4,968 bases of DNA. It comes from a virus. Taxonomy: Duplodnaviria; Heunggongvirae; Uroviricota; Caudoviricetes. This document shows positions 4,470-4,968 of the stretch, piece after piece. The position numbers and the translations under genes are program-made. Position 1 is the stretch's first letter. Each line of letters starts with the position of its first letter. Location: IMG/VR virus record IMGVR_UViG_2541047436_000009; one strand, given 5' to 3'. A model generated the notes under the pieces. It saw nothing but the letters and a program-made list of their open reading frames with translations, did no database searches and had not been told where the DNA came from.

Positions 4470-4968
4470 ATGGCTAATGCCTGGCTCAGATTGTGGCATG
4501 ACATGCCAAATGATCCCAAATGGCGAACCATTGCCAGGGTCTCAGGACAGCCAATCGCAACAGTGATGGCGGTGTATATCCACCTTCTGGTGAGTGCGTC
4601 ACGAAATGTCACGAAATGTCACGGCGAGTCACTACGTGGTCACATTGATGTCACGACGGAAGATTTAGCAAGTGCGCTTGATGTGACGGAAGACGTGATT
4701 GATTCAATTTTGCATGCAATGCAGGGGCGAGTTCTGGATGGCGATCTTATTTCCGGATGGGAAAAACGCCAGGTGATGAAGGAGGATAACGGTAATGTTT
4801 CGCAAACCGCAAAATCCCCGGCAGAGCGCAAGAGAGCGCAGCGGGAGCGGGAAAGACTGCGGGAGCAGAACACTGATTGTCACGATGAGTCACGACGCGT
4901 CACGCATATGTCACGACAAGTCACGACAGATACAGATACAGATAAAGAATTAAACCCCACACATAACG
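4470..4968 (+). CDS. ydaU: YdaU-like replication protein (DUF1376 family), N-terminal 166 codons; continues beyond the window end
   Basis: ATG at 4470 with GAGGT 4 nt upstream; the frame is open to the window edge (MANAWLRLWHDMPNDPKWRTIARVSGQPIATVMAVYIHLLVSASRNV...). It is absent from the ORF track because it has no in-window stop. Position after ydaT and the N-terminal WLRLWHDMPNDPKW motif fit Rac YdaU as I recall it. Confidence 0.8.
   Translation, partial: MANAWLRLWHDMPNDPKWRTIARVSGQPIATVMAVYIHLLVSASRNVTKCHGESLRGHIDVTTEDLASALDVTEDVIDSILHAMQGRVLDGDLISGWEKRQVMKEDNGNVSQTAKSPAERKRAQRERERLREQNTDCHDESRRVTHMSRQVTTDTDTDKELNPTHN
4598..4656 (+). repeat. Iteron array 1: six direct GTCAC(G) repeats at 10-11 bp intervals, inside ydaU
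   Basis: GTCAC begins at 4598, 4608, 4618, 4628, 4639 and 4650 (GTCACGAAAT GTCACGAAAT GTCACGGCGA GTCACTACGTG GTCACATTGAT GTCACGACGG), seen directly. The period is not a multiple of 3, so the repeat is a DNA-level feature, not a peptide repeat. Confidence 0.65.
4879..4943 (+). repeat. Iteron array 2: five direct GTCACG repeats at 10-11 bp intervals, followed by 3 x ACAGAT tandem hexamers
   Basis: GTCAC begins at 4879, 4889, 4899, 4910 and 4920; ACAGAT x3 at 4926..4943. Seen directly, inside the ydaU coding sequence about 220 bp downstream of array 1. Confidence 0.65.

Follow-up and report, generated by a model that had tools for sequence, protein, structure and literature searches.

A candidate replication origin of phased GTCACG iterons inside the initiator gene of a mosaic Rac-like prophage

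The 4,968 nucleotides of Caudoviricetes DNA analysed here (IMG/VR virus record IMGVR_UViG_2541047436_000009; the whole stretch is called the window below) end inside a replication initiator gene. We propose, with a probability of roughly three in four, that positions 4598-4954 are a prophage replication origin lying inside its own initiator gene, in which repeated GTCACG words are the iterons and an AT-rich tract is the unwinding element. The region is read as an origin because its layout matches the proven origins of lambda and Stx phages, the oriL of phage SPP1, and those of RepA_N plasmids such as pSK41. This layout has five parts: phased repeats, an AT tract adjoining them, a site inside the initiator gene at the linker, exchange of modules at that site, and a loader gene downstream. 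An earlier reading of the letters by a model, referred to here as the first-pass annotation, had suggested that the lambda logic of an origin within the initiator might apply; it fits the iteron arrays, the adjoining conserved AT tract, the predicted winged helix and the lambda-P-like loader, from which we infer origin activity. The design is thus a familiar one, and the family that carries it seems to be undescribed.

The eleven direct GTCAC(G) copies, 10-11 base pairs (bp) apart in two clusters, had already been noticed in the first-pass annotation, and a sequence scan confirmed all of their coordinates (Table 1). Nine of the eleven read GTCACG, the exceptions being GTCACT at 4628 and GTCACA at 4639. 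The mean spacings of 10.4 and 10.25 bp come close to one helical turn, and the two arrays are 229 bp apart, both within about 330 bp. Chance does not account for this arrangement: GTCAC occurs 17 times in the window versus 7.2±2.9 expected from dinucleotide shuffles, GTCACG 9 times versus 1.8±1.4, and the longest run of GTCAC at 10/11-bp spacing has six members versus a maximum of two in 2000 such shuffles. The remaining five GTCAC words are scattered singles, in line with chance, and the GTCAC scan found no second iteron cluster elsewhere in the window. The copies lie in codon phases 2, 0, 1, 2, 1, 0 in array 1 and 1, 2, 0, 2, 0 in array 2. All three phases are therefore occupied, which confirms the earlier statement that the repeats are out of codon register and means that there is no repeated peptide; the residues encoded at the copies are indeed different (ASR, VTK, CHG, ESL, GHI, VTT and so on). 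When the same 166 codons were recoded synonymously in 20,000 draws, GTCAC appeared 2.27±1.36 times with a maximum of 9, and 0/20,000 draws reached the observed 11.

The repeats are also kept across diverged relatives. Our comparison set of genes sharing the N-terminal domain comprised four phage genes, 38 genomic loci and 45 distinct viral-contig genes. In about 27 of them, a first set of GTCAC copies stands at gene nucleotides 129, 139, 149 and 160 and a second at about 389, 399 and 409 (419, 430), in hosts that include Escherichia, Shigella, Aeromonas, Pseudomonas, Bordetella, Chromobacterium, Aquitalea, Castellaniella, Acidovorax, Gilvimarinus and others, and with a gene GC content that ranges from 42 to 68%. 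Thus, in an alignment of the kind called for by the first-pass annotation, the phase of the repeats is conserved despite codon drift. Within the arrays of these genes, neighbouring copies are 10 bp apart 95 times and 11 bp apart 29 times, and the core GTCACG alone is conserved (G at position 6 in 86-89%), with degenerate spacers. Array 1 has four copies in most homologues, the copies in the window and in E. albertii being 21 bp longer (two units, 7 codons), and the equivalent of array 2 has 3-5 copies in all genes of the GTCAC class. Most of them also have an inverted GTGAC at gene nucleotide 193 (214 with the 21-bp insert).

A codon-level comparison was made with 19 non-redundant genes that have no insertions or deletions in the first 105 codons, share 51-75% protein identity with the window protein and come from hosts of 42-68% GC. 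Outside the arrays, invariant residues use 3-6 synonymous codons each, so that synonymous sites are saturated. Inside array 1, by contrast, a single codon is used in 19/19 genes for V47 (GTC), T48 (ACG), G50 (GGT), H51 (CAC), V54 (GTC) and T55 (ACG), in 18/19 for S44 (TCA) and in 17/19 for A43 (GCG), and V65 in the inverted copy is GTG in 17/17; the spacer codon R49 is free to vary. Because the array codons are fixed while synonymous sites elsewhere drift, purifying selection acts on the DNA word and not on the protein, which bears out the DNA-level selection claimed in the first-pass annotation. This conservation is not an artefact of recent common ancestry, since the flanking codons are saturated.

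Other members of the family have a different word at the same places. GTAACG(C) stands at both array positions in loci of Pantoea, Enterobacter and Marinobacter, in one locus recorded as Sphingomonas and in four viral contigs, and CGAACGC does so in four genomic loci and about 20 distinct viral contigs; (A/C)ACG is common to the words of all clades. The two arrays of one gene always carry the identical word (8 genome loci and at least 20 distinct viral contigs of the other words), and in a gene of the GTAAC class (L032) even the inverted site follows suit, its GTTAC being the word of that clade in reverse complement. At the same time, the partners of the N-terminal domain change. It is joined to a DnaT-like C-terminus and a lambda-P-like protein in the window, to a DnaT-like C-terminus and a DnaC/IstB-like ATPase in the Aeromonas phage, to a C-terminus of unknown type and DUF977 in phage Evi, and to a C-terminus of unknown type and a Toprim primase in the Pseudomonas phage; the upstream regulators differ as well. 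The arrays travel with the N-terminal domain alone.

The tract that follows the last iteron shows a similar persistence. It is where the GC content of the window's gene is lowest (0.375 over 40 bp), has a strong skew of A over T, and includes ACAGAT three times at 4926-4943. A tract of the type (C/T)AGATAAAGATA(A/C)AGA comes after the last iteron in nearly every family member, whatever the class of its iterons. In most genes this GATAAAGATAAAGA-type tract has a GC content of 17-30%, and among them are genes of 60-68% GC, where one would expect the same Asp-Lys-Thr peptide to be written in GAC, AAG and ACC codons. We propose the tract as a candidate DNA unwinding element. By eye, it contains no convincing match to a DnaA box or to the IHF consensus. 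The GTGACG and the ACAGAT tract, offered in the first-pass annotation as possible auxiliary elements, have both proved to be conserved parts among homologues.

For the part of the gene beyond the end of the window we took the prophage copy in Escherichia coli O157:H7 (L001) as its continuation, the last 569 bases of the window being found with 100% identity in the prophage beside potC of O157:H7 strain TR01 as well as in about 300 further genomes. The full gene in L001 has 345 codons and is annotated as 'DnaT-like ssDNA-binding domain-containing protein'; it follows racR, a ydaS-like and a ydaT-like gene and is followed by 'replication protein P'. A Pfam scan placed DnaT (PF17948) at residues 201-267 of the full initiator. 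The P-like gene (L001:7101-7562) matches Phage_lambda_P (PF06992, E-value 6.8e-16), and its ATG overlaps the initiator stop (ATGACTGA). The initiator is mosaic: residues 1 to about 195 are shared with phage Evi (75%), Aeromonas phage pAEv1818 (55%) and Pseudomonas phages (61%), residues from about 148 to 345 with the Rac-SA53 'ydaU' and PPompW phages (82%), and the junction coincides with the end of array 2 and the AT tract. One PHROG profile (15931, 482 positions) covers the initiator and the P-like protein jointly.

Proteins with this N-terminal part are called 'replication initiation protein' in PHROGs, and many of the more than 1000 homologues are named 'phage replisome organizer' by NCBI. 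Profile links to PHROG 4880 'replisome organizer' (E-value 3.4e-4) and PHROG 10469 'DnaD-like helicase loader' (4.8e-8) are weak. In an AlphaFold model built with 48 homologues, residues 1-100 are confident (predicted local distance difference test, pLDDT, about 90) and contain helices (29-45, 63-70 and 74-84) along with a beta-hairpin wing. The N-terminal domain is thus confidently predicted to be a winged helix, resembling the N-terminal domain of DnaD and the RepA_N plasmid initiator. In the same model, array 1 encodes residues 43-62, a low-confidence hairpin or loop between helices 29-45 and 63-70, and array 2 encodes residues 137-152 in a disordered linker (pLDDT below 50 for residues 135-166). 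Foldseek with the predicted structure returned no significant match, and a Pfam scan of the N-terminal domain gave nothing above threshold, Phage_rep_org_N (PF09681) reaching an E-value of 0.11 and 13 bits versus a cutoff of 23.3. Pfam scans found no match to Phage_rep_O, the lambda O family, in the full protein or the N-terminal domain, and the initiator lacks the RepA_N domain (PF06970). The profile search of PDB sequences yielded DnaT alone, weakly, for the C-terminal part, and that of NCBIfam DnaT alone, below its cutoff.

Table 1 Features of the candidate origin and its gene, in positions of the window
Feature	Position	Strand	Remarks
5' part of the replication initiator gene, codons 1-166 (N-terminal domain and linker)	4470..4968	+	ATG at 4470; open reading frame runs past the end of the window
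Array 1, six direct GTCAC(G) iterons	4598..4655	+	spacings 10, 10, 10, 11, 11 bp; mean 10.4
GTCAC starts in array 1	4598, 4608, 4618, 4628, 4639, 4650	+	
Single inverted iteron	4683..4688	-	reads GTGACG on the + strand; 33 bp past the last array-1 copy
Array 2, five direct GTCACG iterons	4879..4925	+	spacings 10, 10, 11, 10 bp; mean 10.25
GTCAC starts in array 2	4879, 4889, 4899, 4910, 4920	+	
AT-rich, purine-rich tract ACAGATACAGATACAGATAAAGAATTAAA	4926..4954		24% GC, 29 bp; directly adjoins array 2
Start of C/GC-rich segment CCCCACACATAACG	4955..4968		O157 copy continues into CGCGCATGCGCG

From these features, a course of initiation can be outlined. Derepression of the racR-controlled rightward operon would allow the initiator to be made, which would then bind the iterons via its N-terminal winged-helix domain. 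The iteron spacing of about 10.3-10.4 bp would align the bound protomers on one face of the helix, where they may oligomerise like DnaD-type N-terminal domains and bend or wrap the DNA, and the arrays, though 229 bp apart, may be brought together. The resulting stress would open the adjoining AT-rich purine tract at 4926-4954, and the C-terminal DnaT-like domain together with the downstream lambda-P-like protein would bring in the host's DnaB helicase at the site so opened. That these proteins bind, bend and unwind the DNA and load the helicase is put forward here as a prediction from sequence.

The proven origin of lambda and Stx phages consists of iterons and an AT-rich tract in the middle of gene O (PMC7466680). 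The window resembles it in that iterons and an adjoining AT tract lie inside the open reading frame of the initiator, between a DNA-binding N-terminus and a partner-binding C-terminus, and in that the number of iterons varies and lengthens the protein, the difference between 4 and 6 iterons being 13 residues in Stx phages (PMC7466680) and 7 residues here. As in lambda, a P-type gene stands directly downstream and the initiator is mosaic with its junction at the origin. However, the window initiator has no sequence relation to O, a 6-bp core at 10-11-bp spacing is found here instead of four units of about 19 bp with internal symmetry, the iterons form two arrays separated by 229 bp, one in the coding sequence of the DNA-binding domain, plus an inverted copy, and the C-terminus is DnaT-like. 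In SPP1, the proven oriL has direct repeats together with an AT-rich unwinding element inside gene 38 and is bound by G38P (PMC6316719). [quoted passage not shown] The proven origin of pSK41 has four Rep boxes in the centre of rep, and the linker is encoded by ori (PMC5703833). In contrast to the RepA_N and pSK41 systems, with which there is no sequence-level match, the present one belongs to phages and prophages and not to a plasmid, and its helicase recruitment would rely on a DnaT-like domain and a P-like protein. In satellite phage P4, short repeats (about 8 bp) are grouped in two separate clusters, ori and crr, both bound by its initiator, but the P4 alpha protein is a primase-helicase unrelated to the window protein, and the P4 clusters are kilobases apart and outside the coding sequence of the DNA-binding domain.

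The main rival explanation is that the repeats are initiator sites which serve chiefly for control, initiator on array 1 acting as a roadblock or in autorepression of the replication operon, or the two arrays handcuffing each other to limit initiation as plasmid iterons do, in which case unwinding could take place elsewhere; it is compatible with the sites being iterons, and we consider it unlikely. Iterons with dual roles in initiation and control are established in plasmids, which counts in its favour, and array 1 is 229 bp from the AT tract, lies within the domain-coding sequence and has no counterpart in lambda. It is also consistent with this explanation that, in lambda in vitro, two iterons beside the AT-rich region suffice (PMC7466680). 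However, array 2 directly adjoins the conserved AT tract, which is the classical arrangement of an origin, no other cluster of iterons exists in the window, and roles in control and in firing are not mutually exclusive.

Much less probable, in our estimation, is that the arrays bind some other protein, such as a repressor, a CII/YdaT-like regulator or a partition or packaging protein, and are in the initiator gene by happenstance. Short phased repeats do also occur in partition and pac sites, and the window encodes the DNA binders RacR, a YdaS-like and a YdaT-like protein; nevertheless, the flanking genes differ across the Escherichia, Aeromonas and Pseudomonas phages while nothing but the N-terminal domain stays the same alongside the arrays, the change of word from clade to clade goes together with that domain, and an AT-adjoining site inside the initiator gene is what proven origins look like. 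We give the least credence to the view that the repeats are a by-product, namely of a repeated or low-complexity peptide, of neutral slippage or of a signal at the level of messenger RNA. A unit of 10-11 bp could grow by slippage, and the window copy is two units (21 bp) longer than most of its relatives. Yet the use of all three codon phases leaves no peptide repeat, and this view is already contradicted by the synonymous-site comparison, in which sites are frozen at the word only. Moreover, the word is kept from 42% to 68% GC, the 6-bp core is retained while the spacers drift, which is the opposite of a young slippage repeat, and the conserved inverted copy argues for recognition of double-stranded DNA and not of RNA.

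Several observations nevertheless weigh against our reading of 4598-4954 as an origin. The lambda model offers no explanation for what array 1 does within the sequence that codes for the DNA-binding domain. With its 29 bp the AT tract is short, and as it doubles as coding sequence for a conserved charged linker, TDTDTDKE, some constraint at the protein level may contribute to its conservation. Gene conversion, rather than a shared binder, could in principle keep the identical word in both arrays. A search for phased repeats recognised no iterons at either position in four low-GC members (L034, L037, L039 and L071), nor any in the TL-2011b gene (L005:1501-2325), whose N-terminus is 41% identical. 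In these iteron-less members, either the sites are too degenerate to be seen or the origin is elsewhere; those from the low-GC hosts Ventosimonas and Entomomonas keep a GATAAAGA tract. The P-like loader is short, with 153 residues that align to residues 89-257 of the 258-residue P-like protein of TL-2011b at 31% identity, and tblastn found no missing N-terminal part of its gene; therefore, the window prophage may be replication-defective. Finally, we found no description of an origin of this family in the searchable literature, which does not cover older subscription papers.

The gene had been named ydaU in the first-pass annotation, which also raised a possible identity of the origin with oriJ of the Rac prophage of E. 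coli K-12. Neither survived comparison with K-12. BLASTP against K-12 YdaU gave an E-value of 0.4, YdaU belongs to DUF1376, for which the window protein has no match, and the two genes, with unrelated N-terminal domains, merely occupy the same position. K-12 ydaU contains no GTCAC or GTGAC, and since the initiator gene is not ydaU, the origin is not oriJ of K-12 Rac. The two modules are nonetheless alike in several respects. In K-12 Rac the replication gene likewise comes after racR-ydaS-ydaT, the ydaU linker has imperfect phased TGTT(C/G)AA repeats at gene nucleotides 393, 426, 436, 447 and 459, and these repeats of its own are followed by GATACAGATAAAGAT and a C-run, CCCCCCCTAAATCCCCCCC (L002:4510-4660; MG1655 record 1421509-1421659); furthermore, the Rac-SA53 'ydaU' is 82% identical to the C-terminal half of the window-type protein. 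They differ in the DUF1376 N-terminal domain of YdaU, in the repeat word, and in the loader, which is the DnaC-like YdaV in K-12 versus a P-like protein here. Because the layout is the same as in the window gene, oriJ of K-12 Rac probably lies within the repeats and tract of ydaU. The literature searched gave no nucleotide-level location of oriJ, and the 'oriJ' primers of PMC3945230 lie inside ydaV (1422240-1422376).

Only at the hairpin encoded by array 1 does the protein differ systematically from one iteron class to another; elsewhere in the winged-helix domain, the putative recognition helix and the wing included, the classes are nearly alike. The hairpin reads SRNVTRGHxDVT in the GTCACG class and SNATERGRTQ in the CGAACGC class, and it consists of (T/S)xGNAGVTQ(G/S)-type repeats in the clearest GTAACGC members. 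We speculate, as a long shot, that this hairpin helps to read the iteron, so that a binding site and its reader would be held in the same nucleotides. If so, a change of the word in array 1 would alter the reader simultaneously, which would provide a self-referential route to new origin specificities, that is, to new incompatibility types. Apart from this speculation, the present analysis places a candidate origin, at nucleotide resolution, in a large and uncharacterised family of replication modules that counts more than 1000 database proteins and occurs in prophages of enterohaemorrhagic E. coli O157:H7, Shigella, E. albertii, Pseudomonas aeruginosa, Aeromonas, Bordetella and others. Its classes GTCACG, GTAACGC and CGAACGC constitute a natural system for the evolution of initiator-origin specificity with the origin locked in the frame of the initiator, and the common AT tract hints at the likely place of the long-known, unmapped oriJ of K-12 Rac. 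There is also a practical bearing on prophage induction, on the cross-activation of co-resident prophages and on the building of phage-derived replicons.

To the right of the AT tract, the first bases beyond the end of the window form a perfect 12-bp palindrome, CGCGCATGCGCG, at L001:6570-6581. Locus L038 has AACCCCACACATAA..CGCGCG and a similar AACCCCACACATAAAACGCGCG, and C-runs after the tract are seen in many loci. The palindrome calls to mind the GC-rich element found right of lambda's AT-rich region, and together with the GC-rich segment it might possibly mark a right-hand boundary of the origin.

A different arrangement was observed in a Serratia metagenome-assembled genome (L040:300-700) and in Pantoea (L043:300-720). 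In both, a GIY-YIG-like segment (YVYYVATTDGDVVRVGISRNPWAR) is inserted in the linker and flanked on both sides by (A)CTACG arrays with 9-11-bp spacing, the second of which adjoins a GATAAAGAT tract; array 1 in the hairpin is absent. A plasmid collection searched for small plasmids relying on this initiator gene yielded nothing but large plasmids carrying phage inserts, chromosomes that had been misfiled, and two Pseudomonas records of 50.8 kb. The latter, both from P. aeruginosa and filed as plasmids (CP137943.1:44997-45419 and CP124671.1:30935-31357), have the same initiator type at 70% identity and may represent phage genomes that were maintained, or sequenced, as circular episomes.

As for the window as a whole, positions 2607-4968 match the prophage of O157:H7 TR01 at 99.5%, and positions 1-2606 are a different mosaic piece without a match there. 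None of the complete E. coli RefSeq genomes has the whole window at high identity, the best covering 85% of it at 90%, and the window is best described as a mosaic Rac-like prophage. Close E. coli homologues of the initiator in the protein database are mostly 'partial' and come from contigs of 0.6-5 kb, and there are 2-3 matching places per O157 genome. Short-read assemblies thus tend to break in or near the initiator gene, a likely reason being that several co-resident prophages have parts of it in common.

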